A stretch of 64,000 nucleotides of DNA from Nitrospirota bacterium (GTDB lineage: Bacteria; Nitrospirota; Thermodesulfovibrionia; Thermodesulfovibrionales; Dissulfurispiraceae), in assembly GCA_021791055.1 (NCBI GenBank), contig JAJYXI010000051.1, positions 1,653-65,652 of the forward strand. Direction: 5' to 3'. The first letter of the stretch is position 1, and every line of letters starts with the position of its first letter. Position numbers and translations under genes: made by a program. Positions 2,229 to 15,033 of this stretch are shown here, piece after piece. Under the pieces are notes generated by a model. That model saw only the letters and a program-made list of their open reading frames with translations, ran no database searches and was not told where the DNA came from.

Positions 2229-4844
2229 TCATAATGACCCCTCTGCCTTTTTCCTCAACTCCAAAAGCTTCTTCAAAGCCTTCTGCGGCGTGAGGGTTTC
2301 CATATCGATATTTAACAATTCCCGTGTAATTGGGTCTCCGGCAAAGAAAAGATCCATCTGTGAAGCGCGGGGCATTAATGTGCTTGATTCCCTTTTTTCG
2401 AGTTTATCTAAAACAGTCTTTGCACCTTCTATAACCTTATCAGGCAGACCTGCAAGCCTTGCAACCTGAATTCCGTAGCTCTTGTCAGCAGACCCCTTCT
2501 CAATCTTTCTCAGGAATATAACTTCATCGCCCCATTCTTTGACAACCACATTGTAATTCTTGACGCCATCTATTGTTAAAGAAATGTCCGTGAGCTCATT
2601 ATAATGCGTTGCAAACAGCGTTCTGGCTTTAATATTGCCTGCAAGATACTCTGCAACTGCCCATGCAATGCTGATGCCGTCAAAGGTGCTTGTCCCCCTG
2701 CCCACCTCATCTAAAAGAATCAAACTTTTTTCGGTTGCATTATTCAAAATATTTGCTGTTTCTATCATCTCAACCATGAATGTGCTCTGTCCCTTTGTGA
2801 TGTAATCCGATGCGCCTATCCTCGTGAATATCCTGTCAACAATCCCTATCCTTGCGCTCTCGGCAGGTACAAAAGAGCCTATCTGAGCCATAAGCACAAT
2901 CAATGCCGTCTGTCGCATATAAGTGGATTTCCCCGCCATATTGGGGCCTGTGATGATCAAAAGCCTGTTTTCATTGCAATCAATATGCGCACTGTTGGGT
3001 ATGAATTTCTCGTCAAGACTCCCGACTCCTGACTCCTGACTCCTGACTCCAAAGAGCCTTTCGATAACGGGATGCCTTCCATCAATTATCTCGATTGCAT
3101 CATCTTCAGCAGTGATAGGCTTTACATAATCATACCTCTTGGCGACAGTTGCCAGAGACAATAGAAAATCGATCATTGCTATCTGTGCCGATGCATCGAG
3201 GAGCTGATTTGTGTATTTCTGCATCTTTTCGAGTATGCTCATGTATATCTCGTATTCGAGCTCCTTAAGCCTGTCTTCTGCACCAAGCACCTTTGTTTCG
3301 TATTCCTTCAAATCCGGAGTGATAAACCTCTCGCAGTTTGCAAGGGTCTGCTTTCTTATGTAATCATCCGGCACGAGATGCCCGCTCTTTAGAAGATTCG
3401 GCTTTGTGACCTCTATGTAATATCCGAATACTTTATTGAAGCCAACCTTTAAGGATGATATGCCTGTCCTCTGCCTCTCTTCCGACTCAAGCCTCGCTAT
3501 AAAATCCTTGCCGCTTGATGAGATACCCCTCAACTCATCAACTTCCTTGCTGAAACCCTTTCTGATTATCCCTCCATCCTTCGGATTAACAGGCGGATTT
3601 TCAACAATGCTGAAGTCTATAAGGTCTTTTAAATCGTGGAATTCAGGGATGTTACTTCCAATCTCATTGATATATGAATTTACCGATGACAGCAGGAGCT
3701 TCTTTATTCTCGGCAGATGCTCGACAGAGTTTTTCAGGGCAATCAAATCCCTCGGGCTTGCGGATTTGGAGATAACCCTTGATGCAAGCCTCTCGATGTC
3801 CTGTATCCTTCTGAATGTCGTTCTCAACTCCTCTGTTAGTCCGTAATCTTCGATTATTGCCTCAACAGCATCCTGCCTTTTTATTATCTCATGAGATGAA
3901 AGCAACGGCTTCGTTATGGCATTTCTCATAAACCTGCCGCCCATCGGCGTAAGGGTCTCGTCCAGAACCCATAGCAGAGAGCCCTCGATAGAACTATTAT
4001 GATATTCGGCCTTTAGATTGTGCAGAAGTTCGAGGTTCCTCTTTGTTGTTGAATCAAGGAACATATACGATGTCTGATTTAAAACAGCAATTTTTTTGAA
4101 GGTCAGTATTTTCTGGGAATCTTCAAGATAGCTTATGAGCGCACCTGCCGCTGAAATGGCAGCATTCATGCCGCTGCAGCCGTATCCGTCAAGGGATGAT
4201 ACCTTAAAATATCTCAGAAGCATCTTATACGACTCTGCGTAATCGAAATACCAGTCATCATAATAAGATATATAGAAGCCTCTAAATGCCTCCTGATAAT
4301 GAAGGTTATCCTCCATGCTTTTAGGACAGAGTATTTCTCTAGGTTCATGCCTGCTTATCTCGTCCTCTATGGGTTTATCTGTCTCATAAACAATAAATTC
4401 GCCTGTCGAGAGATCAGCCACTGTTATACCATTCAGATGCTGATAAGGGAATATGCTCATGATGTATGCGTTTTCCTTGGGCTGTTCAGGGATGTGCGTT
4501 CCGGGAGTTATGACCTTCACAACCTCCCTCTGGATTATTCCTTTTTCTGGACCTTTGTCCAGCTTAGGGTCTTCGACTTGCTCGCATATAGCAACCTTAT
4601 GTCCTGCCTTGATGAGCTTTGAAATATAGCCATCTATAGAGAAGTATGGAACACCGCACATGGGCATGGGGTCATCCTTGCTTTTGTCCCTGCTCGTAAG
4701 GGCTATCTGCAATATATTAGACGCTCTCTTTGCATCCTCGCCGAACATCTCATAGAAATCTCCGAGCCTGAAAAGCACAATGGCATCATGATATTTTTCC
4801 TTAATGCTGAAATACTGCTTCATCAAAGGGGTAAGTTCAGACAC
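2229..4844 (-). CDS. mutS: DNA mismatch repair protein MutS
   Basis: 871 aa. N-terminal TPLMKQY..GDFYE mismatch-binding motif, Walker A GPNMAGKST and DEVGRGTST. In-frame heptamer insert (GVRSQESGVGS). Confidence 0.97.
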   Translation of the reverse strand: MSELTPLMKQYFSIKEKYHDAIVLFRLGDFYEMFGEDAKRASNILQIALTSRDKSKDDPMPMCGVPYFSIDGYISKLIKAGHKVAICEQVEDPKLDKGPEKGIIQREVVKVITPGTHIPEQPKENAYIMSIFPYQHLNGITVADLSTGEFIVYETDKPIEDEISRHEPREILCPKSMEDNLHYQEAFRGFYISYYDDWYFDYAESYKMLLRYFKVSSLDGYGCSGMNAAISAAGALISYLEDSQKILTFKKIAVLNQTSYMFLDSTTKRNLELLHNLKAEYHNSSIEGSLLWVLDETLTPMGGRFMRNAITKPLLSSHEIIKRQDAVEAIIEDYGLTEELRTTFRRIQDIERLASRVISKSASPRDLIALKNSVEHLPRIKKLLLSSVNSYINEIGSNIPEFHDLKDLIDFSIVENPPVNPKDGGIIRKGFSKEVDELRGISSSGKDFIARLESEERQRTGISSLKVGFNKVFGYYIEVTKPNLLKSGHLVPDDYIRKQTLANCERFITPDLKEYETKVLGAEDRLKELEYEIYMSILEKMQKYTNQLLDASAQIAMIDFLLSLATVAKRYDYVKPITAEDDAIEIIDGRHPVIERLFGVRSQESGVGSLDEKFIPNSAHIDCNENRLLIITGPNMAGKSTYMRQTALIVLMAQIGSFVPAESARIGIVDRIFTRIGASDYITKGQSTFMVEMIETANILNNATEKSLILLDEVGRGTSTFDGISIAWAVAEYLAGNIKARTLFATHYNELTDISLTIDGVKNYNVVVKEWGDEVIFLRKIEKGSADKSYGIQVARLAGLPDKVIEGAKTVLDKLEKRESSTLMPRASQMDLFFAGDPITRELLNIDMETLTPQKALKKLLELRKKAEGSL
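3017..3050. repeat. Tandem heptamers (GACTCCT, about 5 units) in frame in mutS
   Basis: gactccc gactcct gactcct gactcct gactcc. Confidence 0.9.
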
Positions 4845-4884
4845 GCTTTAACCTCTCAGCTAAAATTTATAACTTGCAATTATA

Positions 4885-5469
4885 CTACATACAGGGCAGA
4901 TAAACCCAAACCCGCCCTTCAGTCCTTGATTCTGTAATCCTTCGCACAAGTTTCTTCTTATAAAGGTTCAATAACCTCGTCCCGCTTGTGTTTGCAGGGA
5001 GATTCAATTCATCTGAAAGCTCGCCTGCTGTAATCTTGCCTTTGCTGAATATCAGATTAATAGTTTCCTGTAGGTAGTTATGGAGCGTGCCAATAATGGT
5101 TCTCCTTCCATCCTTCATTTCAGCCATTACAGCAAGGTCTTTCCTCTCAAGGGCAACCTCAATGTTCTCCTTCTGGTTTTCGTTCAACCCTTTCAAAACA
5201 ATATATTTGTCCCCATATTCACCGCTTACGAGCCTTGATATGAGCTTTGCCACAATCTCATCAGCGCACGAATAATCAATCACGCCAATTTTTGAGAAAT
5301 CGAGGGCGATGACTTCGCCATCCTTTTCATCCGCAATATCCTGCTCAATGCGCTCCCGTATCGCCTGCCCTGACTGCCTCGTAACAAGGTCAGACGAGCC
5401 GTTTTTAAGCTCTTCCTTGAGGAGTTTATAAAGGTTGTAGGTTGTCATACTGAAATTCATATCTCTCAA
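4885..5469 (-). CDS. STAS-like (DUF4325-type) domain protein with a C-terminal winged-HTH
   Basis: TRQSGQAIRERI...VIALDFSKIGVIDYSCADEIV resembles STAS/DUF4325. The C-terminal ITAGELSDELNLPANTSGTRLLNLYKKKLV looks like a wHTH. ATGA overlap with the upstream gene. Confidence 0.6.
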   Translation of the reverse strand: MRDMNFSMTTYNLYKLLKEELKNGSSDLVTRQSGQAIRERIEQDIADEKDGEVIALDFSKIGVIDYSCADEIVAKLISRLVSGEYGDKYIVLKGLNENQKENIEVALERKDLAVMAEMKDGRRTIIGTLHNYLQETINLIFSKGKITAGELSDELNLPANTSGTRLLNLYKKKLVRRITESRTEGRVWVYLPCM

Positions 5470-5924
5470 TGAATAATGTTCGGTCCTTTTATTAGCCTTA
5501 AATTGCTTAATCCGTTCTCTTCAAATTCTTTTCCATACGCATCAAGAAAAGGCTGCTCCTTGTTAATTCTTTCCTCAAGCTCCATTTTTCTGACAGTATC
5601 CTCACCATATTTTTCTATCAAATCCCTCTCTGCCATCCTGTACATTAATTCATCCCAGAATGTGTCATTATCATATTCATCAATAAGTTCCTCAACACCG
5701 GACTCGTCTATAAATTCTCCTGTCAGGAAAAACATTTTGAGATCTTCATCGTATTCGACAGAATCATCCATCCCTAAATCCTTGCAAAAAGACAGGATAT
5801 ACTGCTCAAGTTCATCAAACTCCTCAATCCTGTCATCAGTGCGATGGGCATTAGCCATCCAAGTGCCGAGGTGAAGAAGCTTAATAAGTGTCTTATACTG
5901 TTTTTTTGTAATGTTAATCTTCAT
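5466..5924 (-). CDS. Hypothetical acidic cytoplasmic protein (152 aa)
   Basis: Intact ORF with a GGGGGAA SD-like sequence upstream, translationally coupled to the downstream gene. I recognise no family. Confidence 0.55.
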   Translation of the reverse strand: MKINITKKQYKTLIKLLHLGTWMANAHRTDDRIEEFDELEQYILSFCKDLGMDDSVEYDEDLKMFFLTGEFIDESGVEELIDEYDNDTFWDELMYRMAERDLIEKYGEDTVRKMELEERINKEQPFLDAYGKEFEENGLSNLRLIKGPNIIH

Positions 5925-5938
5925 AAATTCCCCCTATT

Positions 5939-6187
5939 TTATTCTTCTAAAAGTTGCCATTCTGCATAGCCGTCCTTCCTCTCAATGAGTTTTTTGCCTT
6001 TGAAAATTACCTTCTTAATCGTTGGGTGAGTCTTAACAGTGGTATAAGCCCGCACAAGATTAGCAATCGTGGCCTCCTGAAATATAAGCTCCGTGCCGTC
6101 CTGAAGGACTATCGTAGTTCTCAGATGCTTATGCCCCTCAGGGATCTCGGCAATCAATTCCTTTATGTCTTCGTTGCGGAGAATCAT
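5939..6187 (-). CDS. Hypothetical protein (82 aa)
   Basis: Intact ORF packed 2 nt after the four-helix-bundle gene. I recognise no family. Confidence 0.5.
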   Translation of the reverse strand: MILRNEDIKELIAEIPEGHKHLRTTIVLQDGTELIFQEATIANLVRAYTTVKTHPTIKKVIFKGKKLIERKDGYAEWQLLEE

Positions 6188-6189
6188 TA

Positions 6190-6762
6190 TTATTTTTTCC
6201 TAACCTGCTGGCGCGCTTGATAAAGTTTTTCTGTAAATCCGCCTTCTTTTAGGAATTGCTTTTCCAGTTGCCGCAATTGCTGATCAAGAAGATAATTTGC
6301 CTGATTAATCAGGCAAATAAGAGTATTAGCAGCAACTTCAGAACTTCCTTCAATATAGGTCTTATAAGTCATATACGACCTATTTTTTTCCCAAGCAAGT
6401 TTTCTGATAGATTGCGCCTGCGGATGATTTTTCTCCCAAAGCAGCAGCCCTCGCTGACGCAAAAAATCATGATAGTCGAGCAGCAGTTCTTCCAGGCTTG
6501 CACGGGCTACACCTATTAGTTTTAGTTCGCTCTTCTTTGAAGTGCCTGATACCATGCTGCCTTCGGCAATATTCTGCTTGCCGCTGCGCGCTGCCTGTAC
6601 CATCTGGTCATAAGTGCGCGAACGTTTGTCAATAAAGCGATCACAAAATGCAATTGTGGCATCATAGATGATCTCAGCAGTCTGATAGGACTTCAGATTG
6701 CGGTATCCTCCATGAGGAGGGATAATATCAGGTTTTGACTTTTCGTTCTTTTCATCTATCAT
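6190..6762 (-). CDS. Four-helix-bundle protein (23S rRNA IVS / Avd-like family) with a C-terminal suffix domain
   Basis: YQTAEIIYDATIAF...QMVQAARSGKQNIAEGS...ARASLEELLLDY matches the four-helix-bundle (TIGR02436-like) signature. Confidence 0.75.
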   Translation of the reverse strand: MIDEKNEKSKPDIIPPHGGYRNLKSYQTAEIIYDATIAFCDRFIDKRSRTYDQMVQAARSGKQNIAEGSMVSGTSKKSELKLIGVARASLEELLLDYHDFLRQRGLLLWEKNHPQAQSIRKLAWEKNRSYMTYKTYIEGSSEVAANTLICLINQANYLLDQQLRQLEKQFLKEGGFTEKLYQARQQVRKK

Positions 6763-7025
6763 ATTTGAGCTTTTGCAAGCGTCTTAGATTTTTTTTGTAA
6801 TTTAACTGCTTCATTCAAGGCAAGAGTGATTGCTTCATGCCAATCTATATAGTCGCCGATTTTATCCTCAACAATCTTCAACTCATTACGATTTAATTTT
6901 CTGCCTAACTCCTCTTCAGCAACAGTTTGAACATCTTCAATGTTGATGGAATAAATAACTTTTAAGGGTTTCATATCATTTCCTAAATAAAGTGTCCCAT
7001 TTATTATGTATTCTCTTCTTTTCAT
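6759..7025 (-). CDS. Hypothetical protein (88 aa; possibly starts at the internal Met at 6974)
   Basis: ATGA overlaps at both ends (7022-7025 and 6759-6762). I recognise no family. Confidence 0.5.
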   Translation of the reverse strand: MKRREYIINGTLYLGNDMKPLKVIYSINIEDVQTVAEEELGRKLNRNELKIVEDKIGDYIDWHEAITLALNEAVKLQKKSKTLAKAQI

Positions 7026-7804
7026 TGACGCTTATAACGCGCAAAATACTCATCAATTTCAGGTCGCAATTCAATGCCAACACGCTCAAAAATATCAAGT
7101 AGTTGTTGATATGAACCTTGACCACCAAGAAAGTCCCAAAACTCTTCTGCAACTTTCAGTTCGTTTTGTAGGTCTAACATTCCGCGCATTGTCCAACGAT
7201 TATACGGTTGTGGGGCATACGGATTGTAAGGAATTGCAATTATAGTTTGAACATTAGTGCTTGGGCTCTCGGCTAATACTGCTGCAACCCACTCTAAAAG
7301 TGTTCTCTTAAATTCTTTAAAGCCTCCTACATTAGGTTTTGCTGTTTTAATATCAAAAAGATAAATAGTCCCATCATGAGCAATAAGTTTAATATCAACC
7401 TTTGTAAGTCTCACTGTCCTCATCTGCCCTTGCTGACAAACAGTTCTTATGGCTTCTATTTCAGCAGGCTTATTAGGATTAGAATTTGCTGTTGCAAGCT
7501 TATCCATAATGTTTTGAATGACATTATGAGCTTCAGAACTAATTTTTGTTCCTGCCACTTGTTGCGATAATGCGCTCTGAAAGTTTGCTGATGCTAATGC
7601 TTTTGCAACCGGCTCAAAAATGCTTGTACCAAAATTAGTATTAAGAGAGTGAATAAATGAAAACAGCGCCATTCTATCTTTCCCAAGTAGTCTTGTATGA
7701 AAAGGCATTGATGCAGGCTCTGGATTGTAGTTTTGAAATTTATTCCGCAAGCTGTTTTTTAAAACAGTTTCAACATTTAAAATTTGCTTTTCAGTAAGTG
7801 CCAT
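7022..7804 (-). CDS. Putative type II restriction endonuclease subunit A (TdeIII-like, assigned from memory of the family signature)
   Basis: FHTRLLGKDRMALFSFIHSLNTNFGTSIFEPVA N-terminal signature and a D..(D/E)xK-like YLFDIKTAKPN. Adjacent to the MTase. Confidence 0.55.
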   Translation of the reverse strand: MALTEKQILNVETVLKNSLRNKFQNYNPEPASMPFHTRLLGKDRMALFSFIHSLNTNFGTSIFEPVAKALASANFQSALSQQVAGTKISSEAHNVIQNIMDKLATANSNPNKPAEIEAIRTVCQQGQMRTVRLTKVDIKLIAHDGTIYLFDIKTAKPNVGGFKEFKRTLLEWVAAVLAESPSTNVQTIIAIPYNPYAPQPYNRWTMRGMLDLQNELKVAEEFWDFLGGQGSYQQLLDIFERVGIELRPEIDEYFARYKRQ

Positions 7805-7805
7805 A

Positions 7806-8612
7806 TTATTTCACATTAATAAGTTTTGAAAATCCATCCCAAATCTTCTTCTTATTTTTCTTTCCATAATTTTCAAAAATATGAAGCAATTCACTATATG
7901 TTGAGCTACTTTTACCAAGGAAGTTCCAAAATACTTCATGAACCTTCATATCACCAGCAGGGTCAAAATAATTTAAAACCTTAGGATTTTTATAAGGCTT
8001 TGGATGTTTGTTGTTGTAATAAATTCCAATGATTGAGTCAACTTTTTGGGTTTTGTGCTGATAATATCCCCAAGCCAATGCAGACAGAAGTCTTCTTTTA
8101 GCACCAGGGACTTCTGTTGTGTTTGGGTCTGGTCCTTTCATTTCAAGAAAATAATAGTGCTTTTTTGAATTATCATATAACCTCAGGTCGAATTCATATT
8201 TATGTTTTTCTATTTTTTTCGATGGATTATCACAGGCATTAAATATTTCATTCTTTTCTTTAAGATAGTTTGGATGAAATTTTACATTACTTAAACCATT
8301 CATTATTGAATCAATTTTTTGAAAAACATTTTGAGGCAAAGCGACATCAAGTCGCGATTTTCTTATAACGTTTTCTTTACCCCATGTTTCAATAGCAATT
8401 ATTTCAGCAATTATTTCCATCTCATTGCCGAGAGATGTTTTTAACCCATGAATTCGATGAAGCAATGGTTCAAAGTCTTTCAGAATGGCCATCACGAATG
8501 GATTGCCAGAGTTAGCACCAGAAGAATTAATAGCCTTCTGCAAATATTTTTTAACTACTAAGTCAATTTGTTTTATAATTTGCTTTTTTGCTTTTACTGA
8601 AATTGCTGGCAT
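7806..8612 (-). CDS. Putative restriction endonuclease subunit B, a diverged paralogue of 7022-7804
   Basis: Shares HxLxTxxGxxxE, YFLEMKGPDPN (versus LFDIKTAKPN) and the C-terminal EFWxFLG...Y..LLxIFE pattern with the neighbouring gene. 1-nt TAATG overlap with the MTase. Confidence 0.5.
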   Translation of the reverse strand: MPAISVKAKKQIIKQIDLVVKKYLQKAINSSGANSGNPFVMAILKDFEPLLHRIHGLKTSLGNEMEIIAEIIAIETWGKENVIRKSRLDVALPQNVFQKIDSIMNGLSNVKFHPNYLKEKNEIFNACDNPSKKIEKHKYEFDLRLYDNSKKHYYFLEMKGPDPNTTEVPGAKRRLLSALAWGYYQHKTQKVDSIIGIYYNNKHPKPYKNPKVLNYFDPAGDMKVHEVFWNFLGKSSSTYSELLHIFENYGKKNKKKIWDGFSKLINVK

Positions 8613-10198
8613 TATTTACTCCTTAAATGAAAAATAATTTCTGAATAAGCACCTTTATCTTTTTCAGTGCGGTTTAATACGGGCCGCTTATACTGATTGA
8701 CAATTTGCATACCTGCTTTTTCTGCAATCGTTAGATACATATTGTATTTGTCATTGGCGACAAGGAAAATATCATAATCATCAACTAAAAATTTCTTACA
8801 GTTATTGAGAACATTTGTTATTCCTTGAATATAGCTTTGTTTTGCTTCTCTGCTTTGCCCTTTGTAGAGCGGGCCTATCTCTAAGTCATCTTTACGTTTG
8901 AAACCAAAAAGGTCATAAGCATATGCATGTTGCTCGTGGTAATCAATTAGCCCAACATATGGCGGACTCGAAAATATTCCTTTGATTTTTTGCTTTCTCG
9001 CTAATTCCGCAAATGCAGGATATTTCTTTTCAAGTTCTCCAAAGATGTCAAGAGTTCTGCTATCACCAGTCAAACAGACTTGAAAAGTTTGAGTTCGTAA
9101 TTTATCAAATTGCGAGAGACGTTTAACAGTGTCTTTTGTATAGGTTTTCCACCATTTAAGAATGGAGAAAAGCGGCTTGCAAACTTTGCCATGCTTCGCA
9201 CAGTAATAAGTTGCTGTAATTGGTTCAAGCAATGTTGCTAAATCAGCGTGAGTTGTTGCTCTACATGAGCGAATAGTTCTGCTCAAGATAATACTAATGA
9301 TTCTTTTAGTGTCAATATTTTTTATCCTTTTGATTTCATCAAATACAAATTGAATTTCGTCTCTAACGTGTTGCGAATACCATTTATCAAGAAAAGAATC
9401 GGCTTTGTCCTGTCTTAATTTAATATTGTATTGCTTAACGAGTTTGTTGAAGATGGGTAAAAACTCTTTTTCCTTTTCTGCCCCGTACAGATTCTCGTTA
9501 ATTAGGTTGCGCTTGACTTTGTATTTGTATTCTGGGACAGGGAAATATTTATTATTGAATTCGTAGAGTGCTTCCAAAAGCTTCTCTTCAAACTCAATGG
9601 TGTGAGAGTTTAATAAAAATTCATTAAGTGCTTTTGTTATCCTGTTGATTTCCTTTTGGACATCATCCAAATTATATTTAGCAATTTTACAATTTCCTAT
9701 GAGTGCATTAAAGGCAGAAACATCAATGCCAATTGCATGCATTCCAAGTTCACAAGCCTGCACCATTGTTGTTCCACTACCTGCAAAAGGATCCAAAACA
9801 ATATCACCTTTTTTGAAATATACTTCTTTCTTAAAATTGTCGGTATGTCCGTCAAGAAAATACTCTACGAGTTGAGGAATAAATTTGCCTTTGTATGGGT
9901 GAAGTCGATGAACATGTTTTGTTGTTTCGGCTTCTTTGTATTGATCAAACGACAATGCCCAGTTAAGGTCTTCGCCTAATCGATCTTTCCATGAAAGCTC
10001 TCTCATGCCGTTGTAAGATTTGTAATATTTTATTAACTCCTGCTTAGAGACTTGGGTGGTTCCATTGCCTCCAATTTTCTTTATTCTTCCATATTGAATG
10101 AGATAAGCAATATTAGAGATTGTTACAGTCTTCCCAAGATATTTCGTTGCCCAGTCACTCGCTTCTTTAATAGTCAATAATTGTTGCGTCTCAATCAT
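8612..10198 (-). CDS. DNA methyltransferase (N4-C or N6-A type) with an N-terminal HTH
   Basis: Motif I VLDPFAGSGTT (about residue 143 of the long ORF) and motif IV SSPPY (about residue 418). N-terminal LTIKEASDWATKYLGKTVTISNIAYLI is an HTH. Start chosen at MIETQQ, which is preceded by AGGAGAGAG. Confidence 0.85.
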   Translation of the reverse strand: MIETQQLLTIKEASDWATKYLGKTVTISNIAYLIQYGRIKKIGGNGTTQVSKQELIKYYKSYNGMRELSWKDRLGEDLNWALSFDQYKEAETTKHVHRLHPYKGKFIPQLVEYFLDGHTDNFKKEVYFKKGDIVLDPFAGSGTTMVQACELGMHAIGIDVSAFNALIGNCKIAKYNLDDVQKEINRITKALNEFLLNSHTIEFEEKLLEALYEFNNKYFPVPEYKYKVKRNLINENLYGAEKEKEFLPIFNKLVKQYNIKLRQDKADSFLDKWYSQHVRDEIQFVFDEIKRIKNIDTKRIISIILSRTIRSCRATTHADLATLLEPITATYYCAKHGKVCKPLFSILKWWKTYTKDTVKRLSQFDKLRTQTFQVCLTGDSRTLDIFGELEKKYPAFAELARKQKIKGIFSSPPYVGLIDYHEQHAYAYDLFGFKRKDDLEIGPLYKGQSREAKQSYIQGITNVLNNCKKFLVDDYDIFLVANDKYNMYLTIAEKAGMQIVNQYKRPVLNRTEKDKGAYSEIIFHLRSK

Positions 10199-10260
10199 CT
10201 TTGTCTCTCTCCTAAGCATTCCTGTCTGTAATTATCTCCATAAGGTGCATTCTTCACCAT
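10195..10260 (-). CDS. Possible 21-aa leader ORF coupled (ATGA) to the methyltransferase start
   Basis: AAGGAGG lies 5 nt upstream of the ATG, and the stop overlaps the MTase ATG. Hand-translated as MVKNAPYGDNYRQECLGERQR. Confidence 0.25.
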   Translation of the reverse strand: MVKNAPYGDNYRQECLGERQR

Positions 10261-10262
10261 GG

Positions 10263-10406
10263 CTACCTCCTTTCATTAGCCACAAATCTTAAATTTTCTA
10301 TTGTTTCAAGACTGATGCTCAGAAAAAGATTACAAAGTTTCTTATCTTCTTCAGCAATTTCATTATAAATCTTTTCTGCCTGTTGTAATAACTTCTTTTT
10401 ATCCAT
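10263..10406 (-). CDS. Possible 47-aa ORF at the head of the R-M operon
   Basis: AGGAGAAAACA-ATG. Hand-translated as MDKKKLLQQAEKIYNEIAEEDKKLCNLFLSISLETIENLRFVANERR. Not in the supplied track because it is under 60 aa. Confidence 0.3.
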   Translation of the reverse strand: MDKKKLLQQAEKIYNEIAEEDKKLCNLFLSISLETIENLRFVANERR

Positions 10407-10426
10407 TGTTTTCTCCTACATTTTCT

Positions 10427-10443
10427 TCAACTGAATCAATTGA
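10427..10443. promoter_or_regulatory. Tandem palindromic boxes TCAACTGA / TCAATTGA overlapping the -10 (operator-like)
   Basis: TCAATTGA is a perfect 8-nt palindrome. The second box differs by one base and is 9 nt away. Confidence 0.35.
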
Positions 10444-10467
10444 ATCATATTTTAAGCTATTTGTCAA
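10439..10467 (-). promoter_or_regulatory. Putative sigma70-type promoter of the R-M operon
   Basis: Minus strand: TTGACA, a 17-nt spacer, then TTCAAT. It lies about 35 nt upstream of the 47-aa ORF. Confidence 0.45.
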
Positions 10468-10494
10468 GCAAAAAGTGGGGGGCTAAAGTGAGGG

Positions 10495-11352
10495 CTAAAC
10501 CTCCGGCAGCATTATGTTTATCTGTGAGCCGGGGAAATACGAAAGTTTAGTTTCTTTTTCTTTTCCCCATGACCATTCAGGTATTATTGAAAGTCTTGCG
10601 GTTCCTGAGCGGATGGAGATTTTGCCATTCCATTGATTTACAAATCGCCTGACAGCAGCGAGTCCATGCCCCCTTCCCTCATCTGCATATCTTGAAGCGC
10701 CGTGAAGCAGCGCCTTTTCTATTGCCTCAAAATCATTCTTTAATGAAAACCTCTCTGACAAGGATTTTTTAAAGCCAACCCCAATATCCATGACAGCAAT
10801 CTTCACAACATTTTTATTCAGGTTTTGAAAATGGTATTTCTGTATGCCAACAAATCCTTTTTTCTCGCTGTGTTCAATAATATTCTGGCAGACCTCTGAA
10901 AGTGCAACTATAAAGCCGTTTATCGCTCTTTCATCATAATGGAGATGTTTTTTAAGGATTGCATTTGCACGTTCTTTAACCTTGCCCACGATAAAATGAA
11001 TGTCATCCGACTTCTCAATAGGCGTAATTTCAAGCAGGACATCTGAATAAGAACTCCTCCTATATTTTTCTGATATTTCAGGTTTGGAAGGCTCAAGCTT
11101 AAAGTAATTATCGGCAAACTTGAAGAAGTCCATCCTTTCGAGATATTTAAGGACTTCCTCTGATTCAGGAAGATAAAGGGTTTTCTGAATATTGCCAGAT
11201 TTAAGAAGCTCTCCGATCTCAAGGATGCCGACCATTCCATAAGGGTCAATGAAGGTAATATCTTGAAGGTCAATTATTGATGACTCATTGAGAAAATGAA
11301 GAACATGTTCAAATGTATCCTCTGTTATCTGGGTAATTGCTTGCGCTGGCAT
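10495..11352 (-). CDS. GHKL-type ATPase / Ser-kinase-like protein (RsbW/SpoIIAB-like) with an N-terminal STAS-like region
   Basis: N-box ALSEVCQNIIEHS, G1 VMDIGVGF and G2 GRGHGLAAV. The N-terminal IDLQDITFIDPYGMVGILEI is STAS-like. Confidence 0.7.
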   Translation of the reverse strand: MPAQAITQITEDTFEHVLHFLNESSIIDLQDITFIDPYGMVGILEIGELLKSGNIQKTLYLPESEEVLKYLERMDFFKFADNYFKLEPSKPEISEKYRRSSYSDVLLEITPIEKSDDIHFIVGKVKERANAILKKHLHYDERAINGFIVALSEVCQNIIEHSEKKGFVGIQKYHFQNLNKNVVKIAVMDIGVGFKKSLSERFSLKNDFEAIEKALLHGASRYADEGRGHGLAAVRRFVNQWNGKISIRSGTARLSIIPEWSWGKEKETKLSYFPGSQINIMLPEV

Positions 11353-12940: not shown

Positions 12941-15033
12941 ATCCCCAGAACTATCTCCCTTTCCTCTATATCCACCCTGTCGATTCTCACTGTCAATTCC
13001 TTGCCTATGGTAAACCTCTTTTTCTTGTGAATTCCGTAAAGGCTCAGACTCTTTTCGTCATATTGGTAGAAATCATCCGTCATGTAAGACACATGAAGGA
13101 AGCCCTCCACATAATAATCCTTCAGCCTTATCTTCAAACCATAGGATGTAACAGAGACAACCTTCCCTTCAAATTCCTCTCCCACCTTATCCTTCATAAA
13201 CCATACTTTCATTGCATTCAGAACTGCCCTCTCTGCCTCATCTGCCTGCCTTTCCATCCTTGATGAGTGGAATGCAATATCAGGCAAAACAGATTCCAGT
13301 TCCTTGATTCTCTTATCGCTGAGATGCTTCTTTGCAAGCACCTCTCTCAATATCCTGTGAACAACAAGGTCGGAATACCTTCTTATGGGTGAAGTAAAGT
13401 GGGTATACGACTCTGAGGCTAATCCAAAATGCCCGACATTGACCGGAGAATATCTTGCCTGCTTCAGGCTCCTCAGTATCATATGGTTTATTATCTCCTC
13501 CTCCGGCGTGCCCTGAATCTGTTTAATGAGCTCAGGGAAATCCTTTGGGACAATAGCCTTTGTCTTTTTCAGAATTTTAAGGGAGCTTATAATCTTCATT
13601 ATATCCTCGAGCTTCATCGGGTCGGGCTCTTCGTGTATCCTGTAAATGCTCGGAATATTAAGACCCTCGAGATGCTCTGCAACAGCCTCATTCGCAGCAA
13701 TCATGAATTCCTCTATTATCATGTGGGCAAAATTCCTCTCTGCCCTTATAATTGCCTCCGGATTCCCCTGTATATCAAGAAGCACCTCAGGCTCGGGAAG
13801 GTCAAAATCGAGGCTTCCCCTTTTAAGCCTTCGTGACTTTAGGATGTTGCATAACTCTCCCATCAGCTCAAAATCACTCAGGAGATAATCGTATCTTTCT
13901 CTCTCCTTTGCATCTTCATCGACAATTATCTTTTTTACGGATGTATATGTCATTCTTTCATTGCTGTTAATGATGCTCGGATAAAACTTTGCATCAAGCT
14001 TCCCGCCATGTGTGTCGAAATCCATTTCCACCGTGAATGCCATTCTCTCCACTTTTGGCTTTAAACTGCACAGATCCTCTGACAGCTCCTTCGGAAGCAT
14101 AGGGATAACCCTGTCAGGGAAATAAACGCTTGTCCCCCTTTTCCTTGCTTCCTTATCTATTAAGGAATCCCACCCCACAAAGAAACCGACATCAGCGATA
14201 TGCACCCATAATTTATATACATCATCTGTTTTCTGAATTGATATGGCATCGTCAAAATCCTTTGCCCTTTCGCCGTCAATGGTTACAGTGGGAAGGCTGC
14301 GCAGGTCTTTTCTTTTATGCTCTCTGTTTCCAATACCCTCCGCATAAAGACTTTTAGCCTCTTCAATAACACTATGTGGAAACCTTCCCGGAAGATTTAA
14401 TTCATCTATTATGCCTTCTACCTCATCTCTGGGAGTTTCAGGCTTTTTTAATATCTTTATTATCCGGCCTGCAGGCGGTCTTTTGTCTGTGGGATAGCTT
14501 ATTATCTCTGCAATGACGTTGTCTCCGTCCTTTGCCTTGCCTTTTTCTTTCGGGGCGATATAAAGGTCAAAGGGAACAGATTTGTTTTTGGGCCTCACAT
14601 AAAAACCCGCCCTGCCGGCCTCAAAAGTCCCCACTATACGCGCATGCGCCCTCTCAAGTATTCGAATTATTGTGCCTTCCCTGCGCCGTCTGTTCTCAAT
14701 CCTTGCAACAACCCTGTCATTGTCCATTGCACCGAGGGTTGCCCTTGAAGGGATGAATACATCCCTCTCACCCGGTTTTTCGAGTATCACGAATCCATAG
14801 CCATCCCTGTGCGCTTCAAAGTAGCCTGTTACGAGATTCATTTCCTCGGCAGGGCCGTAAAGCCCCTTCCTTGTCCTGACAATATCTCCGTCATTGACCA
14901 TCTCCCTGAGGAATCGTTTGAGCTTGCGCCTTTCCGGAGGTGTGAGATTGAGCTTAAAGACAATCTCATGGAAGCTGAGAGGCTGGGTGACCTTTTCTTT
15001 AAAAAATGATATTAGTGAGTCCTTTGTAATCAT
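12937..15033 (-). CDS. rnr: Ribonuclease R
   Basis: 698 aa. Cold-shock-like N-terminus, RNB domain (DFDDAIS, HFGL..YTHFTSPIRRY) and a C-terminal S1 domain. Confidence 0.95.
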   Translation of the reverse strand: MITKDSLISFFKEKVTQPLSFHEIVFKLNLTPPERRKLKRFLREMVNDGDIVRTRKGLYGPAEEMNLVTGYFEAHRDGYGFVILEKPGERDVFIPSRATLGAMDNDRVVARIENRRRREGTIIRILERAHARIVGTFEAGRAGFYVRPKNKSVPFDLYIAPKEKGKAKDGDNVIAEIISYPTDKRPPAGRIIKILKKPETPRDEVEGIIDELNLPGRFPHSVIEEAKSLYAEGIGNREHKRKDLRSLPTVTIDGERAKDFDDAISIQKTDDVYKLWVHIADVGFFVGWDSLIDKEARKRGTSVYFPDRVIPMLPKELSEDLCSLKPKVERMAFTVEMDFDTHGGKLDAKFYPSIINSNERMTYTSVKKIIVDEDAKERERYDYLLSDFELMGELCNILKSRRLKRGSLDFDLPEPEVLLDIQGNPEAIIRAERNFAHMIIEEFMIAANEAVAEHLEGLNIPSIYRIHEEPDPMKLEDIMKIISSLKILKKTKAIVPKDFPELIKQIQGTPEEEIINHMILRSLKQARYSPVNVGHFGLASESYTHFTSPIRRYSDLVVHRILREVLAKKHLSDKRIKELESVLPDIAFHSSRMERQADEAERAVLNAMKVWFMKDKVGEEFEGKVVSVTSYGLKIRLKDYYVEGFLHVSYMTDDFYQYDEKSLSLYGIHKKKRFTIGKELTVRIDRVDIEEREIVLGI

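Follow-up and report, generated by a model that had tools for sequence, protein, structure and literature searches.

A candidate slot for defence genes within a CapK/CapS-type switch in Nitrospirota

Genes and features of the island

Within the window, a 64-kb stretch of Nitrospirota DNA, mutS and a gene for a YkuD transpeptidase flank ten closely packed minus-strand ORFs, as a sequence-only reading had reported. The domains named there, namely, a methyltransferase (MTase), two restriction endonuclease-like proteins, a four-helix-bundle protein, a DUF4325-wHTH protein and a STAS-GHKL protein, were recovered in Pfam, PADLOC and NCBIfam searches. The features are as follows.

2229..4844, minus strand: mutS, an ORF 40 nt downstream of the repressor gene and co-directional with it; its homologue in the related locus L081 has MutS Pfam domains
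4885..5469, minus strand: CapS-like repressor, STAS-wHTH (PF14213, E 9.4e-6)
5466..5924, minus strand: p152, an acidic helical protein of a widespread family occurring singly
5939..6187, minus strand: p82, clade-specific and highly conserved, usually encoded just upstream of the repressor gene
6190..6762, minus strand: four-helix-bundle protein with suffix domain (TIGR04258, E 1.9e-23; TIGR02436, E 6.8e-7; PF05635, E 2.5e-6)
6759..7025, minus strand: p88, a small protein
7022..7804, minus strand: nuclease R2, TdeIII family (PF09520, E 2.8e-93; PADLOC REase_II, E 6.7e-19)
7806..8612, minus strand: nuclease R1, TdeIII family (PF09520, E 4.5e-35; PADLOC REase_II)
8612..10219, minus strand: type II N6/N4 DNA methyltransferase (Pfam N6_N4_Mtase, E 1.6e-14; PADLOC MTase_II PDLC03249, E 2.8e-258)
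10263..10406, minus strand: 47-aa ORF, the first past the operator-like site, with a good ribosome-binding site as read from the sequence
10426..10467, minus strand: promoter with operator-like palindrome, recognised by sequence conservation across loci
10495..11352, minus strand: CapK/VapK-like kinase, degenerate STAS plus GHKL (Pfam HATPase_c, E 1.3e-8; STAS, E 0.089)

Most gene junctions are as first described: MTase and R1 overlap by 1 nt in TAATG at 8612, R1 and R2 meet at 7806/7804, ATGA overlaps join R2 to p88 (7022-7025) and p88 to the four-helix-bundle gene (6759-6762), the latter adjoins p82 at 6190/6187, and a 14-nt gap separates p82 from p152. The ATGA overlap claimed between p152 and the STAS gene (5466-5469) exists only with a TTG start at 5469; the start is probably ATG 5448, as in database homologues, giving a protein of 187 aa and a gap of 17 nt. 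Hand counts of G+C were exact (13/60 at both 8161-8220 and 9301-9360, 31/60 at 14581-14640), but the AT-richness ascribed to the island holds only for the R-M core (7022-10425, 34.5% GC), the remainder being at 40.7%; the STAS-wHTH gene has 44.1%, the kinase gene 39.4% and the whole window 42.4%. The view that the island is foreign to its surroundings likewise does not extend to the kinase and STAS-wHTH genes, whose YkuD-kinase and STAS-wHTH-mutS linkages recur in relatives. The 275-nt stretch after the kinase gene, passed over as a mere spacing, carries the conserved promoter and operator-like site and the previously unlisted 47-aa ORF. Searches for a tRNA, att-like repeats and an RNA family gave no sign of an integrative element, and PADLOC recognised no system besides R-M among the island proteins. 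The island is made up of three layers, namely, a switch frame, an R-M cargo and small passengers, and is not one ten-gene system.

The R-M core and the small passengers

The MTase contains motif I (DPFAGSGTT) and motif IV (SPPY), and its translation may actually begin at ATG 10198; an N-terminal HTH, which had been proposed for it, was not detected by Pfam. R1 and R2 share 27% identity, carry the candidate catalytic motifs ...LEMK and ...FDIK, respectively, and possibly form a heterodimer. At another locus, L084, an 82%-identical MTase has another PF09520 nuclease as its partner, a single protein of 349 aa.

The small genes had been read as forming one translationally coupled unit with the R-M genes, which the relatives contradict: the p152 family has no constant partner, and the four-helix-bundle gene and p88 come and go. 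p88, for which the Pfam, PADLOC and NCBIfam searches gave no match, is chimeric at the N-terminal end; its C-terminal ~50 aa are common to L002, L090 and L135 (tblastn; translation for L090) and its N-terminus differs, so that it is likely to mark the right-hand junction of cassette exchange here. The four-helix-bundle protein belongs to the 23S rRNA IVS protein/Avd-like family and is a recurrent passenger ahead of p82, found in the slot at seven or more loci; L002 lacks it, and in L090 its gene is frameshifted. Of the 1106 homologues of p82, the best 120 are at least 73% identical (MAFFT; 74% by BLASTP), and in L171-L176 and at least 13 metagenome loci the repressor gene is next to it or close by; a fold search with its AF2 model (pLDDT 74) returned no significant match. 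The p152 family (AF2 pLDDT 89; best PDB match E 0.2) occurs at 446 loci in reference genomes of many phyla. No conserved neighbour was found at the 80 loci compared, two of which contain capK or capS, and by this distribution p152 is an independent hitchhiker and no dedicated partner.

The kinase, the repressor and the operator-like site

The kinase possesses an N box (EVCQNIIEH, Asn157), a G1 box (DIGVGF) and a G2 box (GRGHGL). It is homologous to Enterobacter roggenkampii CapK (BLASTP E 5e-8), with a collinear alignment of 48 invariant columns in which a YL.R..FF linker and all three boxes are shared; its GHKL domain also shows weak similarity to RsbW (NCBIfam E 7e-4). It lacks the N-terminal HTH of CapK. 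In a five-sequence alignment the ssDNA-sensing aromatic residue (W68 in CapK, F54 in VapK) aligns with Gln, and the activating signal is for this reason uncertain here. In some 25 related Nitrospirota loci the repressor gene is preceded by a kinase homologue of 67-85% identity.

The family profile of the repressor matched CapS crystal structures over the full length (9Z72, E 1.8e-20; 9Z71, E 3.9e-20) with the phosphoserine column aligned, whereas the single sequence reached E 0.25 against a CapS structure and E 4e-5 in pairwise comparison; the STAS part of the profile also matched VapS weakly (9Z7O, E 0.0032). Ser60 in VIDYSCADE is the predicted phospho-acceptor, a position held by Ser or Thr in 53 of 56 family members. 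There are 2644 homologues, of which the best 120 are at least 77% identical.

Following the kinase gene is a sigma-70-like promoter, with a -35 element TTGACA (10467-10462), a 17-nt spacer containing TG and an extended -10 element TTCAAT (10444-10439). The -10 element is part of the 22-mer TGATTCAATTGATTCAGTTGAA (10447-10426), whose consensus core is a repeated palindrome, TTCAATTGAA. This site occurs once within the window and in 26 distinct loci, each time upstream of cargo and repressor gene, with no matches in shuffled sequence, and it is near-identical in L002 despite different genes downstream. In 18 of the 26 the kinase gene immediately precedes the site; in L135, L151 and L155, where the upstream sequence extends for 2 kb or more, site and repressor gene are present with no kinase gene nearby, and in the other five the upstream sequence is too short to judge. 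The palindrome is the putative operator of the STAS-wHTH repressor. The 47-aa ORF is not conserved, the only similarity, weak and partial, being in L146 and L150.

A constant frame with changing cargo

Kinase gene, 22-mer and repressor gene are kept at about 25 related Nitrospirota loci, and the 1-8.5 kb between them are filled differently in almost every locus compared. The slot was found to hold EcoRV, MjaI, BsoBI, PstI, XcyI, MmeI-like, Eco57I-like, EcoO109I, TdeIII/HinfI-type, Mrr-cat, MvaI, DpnII, NmeDI and GIY-YIG systems, as well as toxin-antitoxin (TA) pairs and, at one locus, an Argonaute (Piwi protein). Among the 63 cargo ORFs with 100 aa or more, 62 are co-directional with the promoter (binomial p about 1e-17). 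As so many R-M types are bracketed by the STAS/GHKL pair, the recurrent linkage asked of relatives exists, and the proposal of R-M genes wired to a kinase/STAS switch is supported. The ten-gene block, in contrast, is not conserved as a unit: the two closest relatives have the same site with a different (L002) or a decayed (L090) R-M system, and both retain kinase, p88, p82, p152 and repressor without MTase-R1-R2. A deletion was seen in L160.

The frame is flanked by YkuD/TPR/mutL genes upstream and by mutS, or rmuC and a DinG-like helicase gene, downstream; at 25 other loci RmuC stands where mutS is here. The more similar the RmuC neighbours of two loci are, the more similar are their repressors, and by these sequence comparisons the frame genes appear to have been inherited vertically together with the DNA-repair genes rmuC and mutS next to them. 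Frame and R-M cargo also occur in another chromosomal context (trpD...PHP) in L084.

Proposed mechanism and alternative explanations

We consider it reasonably probable (about 0.62) that the island is a slot for defence genes in the chromosome, enclosed by a switch of the CapK/CapS type. By analogy with the E. roggenkampii CapK/CapS pair, from which repressor binding, phosphorylation, co-transcription and an activating signal are extrapolated, the promoter after the kinase gene would read into the inserted cargo, then into the repressor gene and perhaps on into mutS, to which read-through possibly extends. Co-transcription over 5 kb is suggested by the tight gene packing and by the lack of predicted terminators at gene borders. 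A repressor dimer would bind the palindrome and hold the whole operon, its own gene included, at a low autoregulated level; the activated kinase would phosphorylate Ser60 on the STAS domain, and the phosphorylated dimer would leave the DNA, inducing the R-M cargo. Cassettes would be exchanged between strains, probably through homologous recombination in conserved arms, the left arm being kinase gene and operator and the right arm the p88 C-terminus, p82 and repressor gene. That the same switch is kept while the cassette is swapped among relatives suggests that defence genes have here a slot that can be reused and is under signal control.

The most serious competitor, although unlikely, is a passive hot spot, in which kinase and repressor regulate a DNA-repair operon (repressor-rmuC or repressor-mutS) and R-M and TA cassettes accumulate in a permissive interval between the two genes, with no selected regulatory link to them. 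The fixed chromosomal position with housekeeping flanks, the host-like GC of the frame genes and the parallel between repressor and RmuC identity would fit it, as would the decayed cargo of L090, the deletion in L160 and four cargo-free loci in which 120-145 nt separate the operator from the repressor gene; rmuC or mutS could then be the primary target and the R-M cassettes opportunistic inserts. Yet the inserts sit past the operator and share its direction in 62/63 ORFs, a pattern that neutral insertion would not yield. Genes entering the slot come under the controlled promoter, "intended" or not, a homologous CapK/CapS pair regulates adjacent immune operons (PMC13373217), and in L084 frame and cargo stand together outside this context. 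The reading of the ten genes as a single novel conflict system, interdependent and translationally coupled, to whose R-M core the small proteins and the STAS/GHKL pair would be obligate partners, could draw on the tight packing (overlaps of 1-4 nt, gaps of at most 14 nt), the single orientation and a PADLOC result restricted to R-M. It is very improbable and already contradicted by the comparative data, namely, the survival of the other genes without MTase-R1-R2 in L002 and L090, the partnerless p152 family, the missing four-helix-bundle gene of L002, the other nuclease accompanying the MTase in L084 and the cargo turnover.

Two further possibilities concern the action of the STAS protein. Since the HTH-less kinase resembles VapK, the STAS protein might be a VapKSC-like antitoxin that inhibits the nuclease directly and releases it upon phosphorylation, instead of or besides transcriptional control; the weak VapS match agrees with this, and in VapKSC the STAS domain binds the nuclease (PMC13373217). 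We hold this to be most unlikely: the protein here has a full CapS-type wHTH where VapS ends in a short C-terminal tail, no PIN/VapC gene was found with Pfam, and the conserved palindromic DNA site co-varies with the repressor. Moreover, loci with unrelated nuclease folds (PD-(D/E)XK, GIY-YIG, MjaI, EcoRV, Piwi) share repressors of about 75-90% identity, which makes specific protein-protein inhibition implausible. Least credible is classical partner switching, with an anti-sigma kinase and an anti-anti-sigma factor serving an alternative sigma factor unrelated to the intervening genes. The RsbW-like trait of the GHKL domain and the STAS fold of its partner point that way, but ORF and Pfam analysis revealed no gene for a sigma factor within the island or right beside it, and the STAS protein, which carries a DNA-binding wHTH itself, gives a full-length match to CapS.

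Comparison with known systems

R-M systems autoregulated by C proteins encode a small DNA-binding regulator in the operon, with an operator overlapping the promoter. The island resembles them in having a DNA-binding regulator in an R-M operon and an operator-like site over the promoter. C proteins have an Xre-type HTH fold, whereas the regulator here is a STAS-wHTH protein encoded at the 3' end of the operon, would receive a kinase signal input and belongs to the chromosomal site, not to the mobile cassette. TdeIII-family (PF09520) type II R-M systems likewise combine an N6/N4 MTase with a PF09520 nuclease, but with one nuclease in place of the two diverged tandem paralogues seen here. The Listeria lmo0301-lmo0305 "immigration control region" is reported as an R-M hot spot with conserved flanking genes and different R-M systems at one site in related strains (PMC10059834); at the Nitrospirota site the flanks are a regulator pair with a promoter into the slot, and cargo orientation is fixed.

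The claim that this is not a described defence architecture no longer stands for the switch, since CapK/CapS pairs coupled to defence genes are now known as a "controller of adjacent pathways" (Chambers et al., EMBO J 2026; PMC13373217). In that work capS follows capK immediately in 443/443 loci, R-M systems adjoin 88/443, and the E. roggenkampii pair consists of an ssDNA-activated kinase and a Ser-phosphorylated autorepressor, with one operator between capK and capS; a split layout with R-M genes between the two switch genes is not described in it. VapK of the VapKSC system of the same study is also a STAS-GHKL protein without HTH, but that system has a VapC/PIN toxin and a short inhibitory tail where the island has a full wHTH and, by Pfam, no PIN/VapC gene. 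With CapK/CapS the island shares a STAS-containing GHKL kinase, a STAS-wHTH protein with a conserved phospho-acceptor serine, a palindrome over a promoter placed after the kinase gene, like the published promoter #1, and an association with defence genes, R-M included. The switch genes are adjacent there and lie 1-8.5 kb of cargo apart in the Nitrospirota loci (5 kb here); the cargo there is downstream, behind a second promoter, and here it precedes the repressor gene as part of the presumed autoregulated unit, with no second operator found. The published operator has TTAA half-sites and differs from TTCAATTGAA, and CapK has an N-terminal HTH and W68 where the present kinase has no HTH and a Gln. 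Bub, CBASS or Thoeris cargo in Proteobacteria contrasts with mainly type II R-M in uncultured, Thermodesulfovibrionia-like Nitrospirota, with rmuC or mutS as downstream neighbours. The switch is thus of a known kind, and it is the split layout, with R-M genes as the apparent regulated cargo between the switch genes, that is new.

Organization of the island

The ten minus-strand ORFs of the island, their junctions, and the GC counts reported earlier from the sequence alone were all verified, and the earlier domain calls agree with searches against Pfam, PADLOC, and NCBIfam. The principal features are as follows.

10495-11352, minus strand: STAS-GHKL kinase gene
10447-10426, minus strand: 22-mer site
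10263-10406, minus strand: 47-aa ORF with an AGGAG ribosome-binding site, between the operator-like site and the MTase gene
10195-10260, minus strand: 21-codon ORF behind AGGAGG, the stop of which overlaps (ATGA) an internal MTase ATG at 10198
8612-10219, minus strand: methyltransferase (MTase) gene
7806-8612 and 7022-7804, minus strand: two TdeIII-family nuclease genes
5466-5924, minus strand: p152 gene
4885-5448/5469, minus strand: STAS-wHTH repressor gene

The MTase matched N6_N4_Mtase in Pfam (E 1.6e-14) and, over its full length, the PADLOC type II model MTase_II (E 2.8e-258), and it carries the SAM-binding motif DPFAGSGTT as well as an SPPY motif of the catalytic (D/S)PPY class. It is adjoined by two PF09520 (TdeIII-family) endonucleases (E 2.8e-93 and 4.5e-35) that share 27% identity with each other, and the three genes are predicted to form a TdeIII-family type II R-M system. 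This was the sole known multi-gene defense system that PADLOC, NCBIfam, and Pfam identified among the island proteins. The four-helix-bundle protein scored 82.1 bits against TIGR04258 suffix (cut-off 40) and 29.5 bits against TIGR02436 (23S rRNA IVS protein/Avd-like; cut-off 24), and the small proteins p82, p88, and p152 matched no family in the three collections. A match of the kinase to DrmA was rejected, as it spans the shared GHKL region only.

The island had been described as AT rich. The dip in GC content is real (37.2%, versus 42.4% for the window) but limited to the R-M core at 7022-10425 (34.5%); the other island genes average 40.7%, with 39.4% for the kinase gene and 44.1% for the STAS-wHTH gene. 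The 275-nt gap past the kinase gene is not empty and contains a promoter-like stretch and the 47-aa ORF with its good ribosome-binding site. This ORF was considered as a conserved controller and discarded, since it gave weak partial matches only. The 21-codon ORF overlaps the ATG at 10198, and the real start of the MTase may be determined by translational coupling between the two.

Identity of the kinase and the repressor

CapS is a STAS-wHTH repressor, the dimer of which dissociates upon phosphorylation (PMC13373217). This derepresses its own promoter, located between capK and capS, together with the downstream immune operon (PMC13373217). The repressor of the island combines an N-terminal STAS domain (DUF4325; PF14213, E 9.4e-6) with C-terminal wHTH matches. 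Its single sequence aligned with the CapS structure at an E value of 0.25 only, whereas a profile built from 56 diverse members of its family matched the CapS crystal structures 9Z72 and 9Z71 over their full length (E 1.8e-20 and 3.9e-20). Ser60, in the sequence VIDYSCADE, aligns with CapS S54 and with the S58A position, which corresponds to the phosphorylation site of SpoIIAA, and 53 of the 56 family members have Ser or Thr in this column.

For the kinase, the capK-capS-Bub locus of E. roggenkampii was retrieved from its plasmid record. The two kinases align with an E value of 5e-8 and are collinear through the STAS region, the YL.R..FF linker, the N box, G1, and G2. Asn157 aligns with the catalytic N218 of CapK, the ATP-lid glycines of G1 and G2 are kept, and the HATPase_c domain is clearly recognized (E 1.3e-8). 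The putative N-terminal STAS domain gives a weak Pfam match (E 0.089); the region is collinear with the STAS region of CapK, but the position of the serine reads Pro-Tyr. Taken at the sequence level, these alignments identify the pair as homologous to CapK/CapS. A literature search on DUF4325 returned nothing relevant, and among the papers searched, CapK/CapS are mentioned in PMC13373217 and its preprint only.

A recurrent frame with variable cargo

Of the 2644 homologues of the STAS-wHTH protein, the 120 best each share 77% identity or more with it. Their neighborhoods, surveyed together with 80 metagenome loci, revealed a recurring frame in which a kinase homologue (67-85% identical) lies upstream and the STAS-wHTH gene downstream of 1.0-8.5 kb of differing genes. 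The proposed linkage of R-M genes to the STAS/GHKL pair is thus found repeatedly in other genomes, where the two genes bracket varied R-M cassettes; recognizable R-M genes occupy the interval in about 14 of about 21 distinct complete loci.

Cargo genes found in the frame
Type IIG/IIL-like fusions: MmeI-like, Eco57I-like
MTase and nuclease pairs: N6/N4 MTase with MjaI, HinfI/TdeIII-type, XcyI, or GIY-YIG
Other nucleases: EcoRV, BsoBI, EcoO109I, PstI/BsuBI, MvaI/BcnI, DpnII, NmeDI
Other MTases: Dam-like
Toxin-antitoxin: Rv0078B/AbiEii-like pairs
Argonaute: one Piwi protein with a DpnII-type nuclease

The Argonaute occurs in the related locus L124 (370-3827), where a 751-aa Piwi-domain protein and then a 404-aa DpnII/MboI-type nuclease-domain protein are encoded directly upstream of the repressor gene, so that the frame seems to accept cargo other than R-M as well. 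Neither a kinase gene nor an operator was found in the approximately 5 kb of upstream sequence available for this locus.

Another arrangement was seen in locus L084 (8724-12356; also in L085-L089), in which a second kinase-linked R-M module directly follows the repressor gene and comprises a receiver-domain-like 205-aa protein, a 375-aa HATPase_c protein, an N6/N4 MTase, and an MjaI-type nuclease. The 205-aa and 375-aa proteins were considered as a paralogous CapS/CapK pair; they show no sequence similarity to the CapK/CapS-like pair of the frame and are a receiver-like protein and a histidine-kinase-type ATPase. Genes for BrnT/BrnA-type or CopG-type toxin-antitoxin proteins lie on the opposite strand in L002 (4675-5289, minus strand), one of the two closest relatives of the window, and in L084 (2470-2784, minus strand), in both cases between the kinase gene and the operator and outside the co-directional operon. 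In addition, a protein of approximately 126 aa with a Cpn10/GroES-like match (E 2.9e-15) recurs directly upstream of the operator in nine loci; in L100 (1900-2300) it is located between the kinase gene and the operator, and in L149, L151, and L155 a DUF1284 gene precedes it, with no kinase gene nearby.

A conserved promoter and palindrome ahead of the cargo

Past the kinase gene, the window and L002 are near-identical over 54 nt and then diverge totally where the cargo starts. This stretch contains an invariant TTGACA (-35), a 17-nt spacer with TG at its end, and the -10 element TTCAAT, which falls within the palindrome TTCAATTGAA. The core of the stretch is the 22-mer TGATTCAATTGAATCAGTTGAA, of which the window copy at 10447-10426 carries one mismatch; the 22-bp candidate operator site is TGATTCAATTGATTCAGTTGAA. 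Matches in a scan for consensus promoters and terminators were no more numerous than in shuffled sequences, and the promoter call rests for this reason on conservation across loci.

The 22-mer is present in 26 distinct loci, each time ahead of cargo and a STAS-wHTH gene, and is absent from shuffled sequence; it occurs once in the 64-kb window, where no second operator was found downstream of the repressor gene or elsewhere. In 18 of the 26 loci, the kinase gene immediately precedes the site; it is missing from L135, L151, and L155, for which at least 2 kb of upstream sequence is available; the remaining five have upstream sequences too short to judge. Between the site and the STAS-wHTH gene, 62 of 63 cargo ORFs of at least 100 aa are co-directional with the site. 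Four loci have an empty interval, with the site placed 120-145 nt ahead of the STAS-wHTH gene. This distribution makes the palindrome a candidate operator of the STAS-wHTH repressor.

Cassette exchange among close relatives

The window, L002, and the second close relative, L090, are syntenic in the order YkuD-kinase ... p88-p82-p152-STAS-wHTH-mutS. Between the conserved parts, L002 has a different R-M system (a 371-aa protein, an Mrr-cat nuclease, and a 321-aa N6/N4 MTase) and no four-helix-bundle gene. In L090, an MTase stump of 86 aa is all that is left of the R-M genes, the four-helix-bundle gene is frameshifted, and the kinase gene is broken. The C-terminal ~50 residues of p88 are common to all three loci and its N terminus differs among all three, which places one exchange junction inside p88.

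L090 (5900-9260) is a decaying version of the window locus, with the kinase gene in three pieces, a nucleotidyltransferase/HEPN-like pair inserted before the operator, and the MTase stump past it. In L160 (5768-6467), the first ~45 kinase codons run directly into the repressor gene, which looks like the result of a deletion that took the remaining kinase codons along with the operator and any cargo.

Passenger genes p152 and p82

Relatives of p152 occur at 446 places in reference genomes of many phyla. The neighbors at the 80 loci fetched vary; a minority are type I R-M, Fic, or HTH genes, and the others are housekeeping genes. A kinase or STAS-wHTH relative is present at 2 of these 80, and p152 was accordingly rejected as a dedicated component of the system. 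The family is widespread as a solitary gene, at times within type I R-M loci. The AF2 model of p152 (pLDDT 89) is mostly helical and acidic, and its best PDB match is not significant (E 0.2).

For p82, 1106 homologues were found, and identity is no lower than 73-74% for the best 120. Its gene is usually located directly ahead of the STAS-wHTH gene, often with the four-helix-bundle gene before it, making p82 a conserved, uncharacterized companion of the repressor. Its AF2 model (pLDDT 74) gave generic small beta-alpha matches only (E >0.1).

Inheritance and downstream repair genes

The repressor gene is followed by rmuC in 25 loci (including L117, 3682-5151) and by mutS in the clade of the window (2229-4884 in the window). 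Both are co-directional and begin 11-50 nt past the repressor gene; in L173, a DinG-like helicase gene follows rmuC. With no second operator in place, transcription from the controlled promoter may continue into these repair genes, and they may be the ancestral targets of that promoter.

The identity of the repressor varies with that of the neighboring RmuC and is higher, an RmuC identity of 55-65% corresponding to a repressor identity of 74-82%; this is a binned comparison only, the overall RmuC median being distorted by partial alignments. Between L081 and the window, MutS is 65%, the repressor 82%, and the kinase 80% identical. Together with the host-like GC content and the conserved housekeeping flanks, this relation to RmuC makes the frame look vertically inherited. 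No tRNA, Rfam family, or flanking direct (att-like) repeat indicative of an integrative element was found at the island, so that cassette exchange likely occurs by homologous recombination in the conserved arms.

Proposed function and alternatives

R-M systems are usually regarded as constitutive, at most self-timed by C-proteins. The simplest account of the present locus is that the R-M cassette and its passengers sit inside the transcription unit of an autoregulated repressor. The cargo would be placed between the counterpart of the published "promoter #1" and the repressor gene, would be repressed together with the latter, and would be induced when the kinase fires. Homology of the pair, conservation of the site, turnover of the cargo, and its orientation are direct observations; binding of the repressor to the palindrome, its phosphorylation, co-transcription of the unit, and the nature of the signal are inferred. 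In a bolder reading, to which we tentatively assign a probability of about 0.4, Thermodesulfovibrionia-like Nitrospirota possess a plug-and-play defense slot in which a vertically inherited, split CapK/CapS-type frame puts any cassette under one signal-responsive promoter, and the frame arms and the clade-specific p82 and four-helix-bundle genes serve as homology arms or cofactors for exchange.

A passive hot spot, i.e., a permissive insertion interval without a selected regulatory link to its cargo, would agree with the vertical inheritance of the frame, but fits neither the strict orientation of the cargo nor the finding that inserts lie past the operator, and any insert there would in any case be read from the controlled promoter; we consider it doubtful. 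That the ten genes form a single, interdependent system, as their packing had suggested, is very improbable: they are not a fixed unit, as L002 swaps the R-M genes, L090 keeps a stump, and p152 has no conserved neighbors. Direct inhibition of the nuclease by the STAS protein, as in VapS, is unlikely, since a single conserved repressor would need to recognize nucleases whose folds are unrelated, and the island has no PIN toxin. Even less credence than to the interdependent ten-gene system is given to a classical sigma-factor partner switch with anti-sigma and anti-anti-sigma factors, as no sigma factor gene was found among the island or flanking ORFs and the STAS protein bears its own wHTH.

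If the regulated defense slot is real, restriction enzymes would be inducible rather than constitutive effectors, the cargo would range from dozens of unrelated type II R-M systems to toxin-antitoxin pairs and an Argonaute, and expression of rmuC or mutS may depend on the shared promoter as well. The data suggest that front-line restriction enzymes, too, may be gated by a stress-sensing kinase/repressor switch characterized only in 2026 and only for abortive infection-type operons in Proteobacteria, and that evolution has turned this switch into a fixed chromosomal socket, the contents of which are swapped between strains. The short conserved candidate operator (22 bp) and the single serine make this regulation directly testable.

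Comparison with CapK/CapS and VapKSC

The coupling of R-M to a kinase/STAS switch had been taken for an undescribed architecture in the sequence-only reading; the switch itself is of a known kind, published in 2026 (PMC13373217). The island shares with CapK/CapS the order of STAS and winged HTH in the repressor, the conserved STAS serine, the GHKL kinase with its catalytic Asn, and a palindrome, here a candidate operator, that overlaps the promoter in the capK-capS interval. Several differences emerge, however. The window kinase starts ~65 residues later than CapK and lacks the N-terminal HTH; deletion of this HTH had no effect in CapK, and VapK also lacks it (PMC13373217). The aromatic residue needed for activation by ssDNA (CapK W68/VapK F54; PMC13373217) aligns with Gln in the window kinase and with His in L001, in a five-sequence alignment of low confidence in this N-terminal stretch. 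The window palindrome is unlike the published TTAA sites. In all 443 published loci capK is directly followed by capS, whereas the window pair is separated by 5.0 kb and nine ORFs, and the pairs of its relatives by 1.0-8.5 kb. R-M systems adjoin 88 of these 443 loci, always outside the adjacent pair (PMC13373217).

The absence of the ~65-residue N-terminal HTH is a likeness to VapKSC. Unlike that system, which has a VapC-like PIN nuclease, no island protein has a PIN domain in Pfam, and in place of a short C-terminal tail the STAS protein carries a full wHTH. What is new relative to both systems is the hypervariable slot, the Nitrospirota host range, the conserved companion p82, and, as judged from sequence, the pairing of an HTH-less kinase with a full CapS-type repressor and a different candidate operator; the split gene order, with R-M apparently as the regulated cargo, is new as well. 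This takes CapK/CapS into a distant phylum and adds a gene order absent from the 443 published loci.
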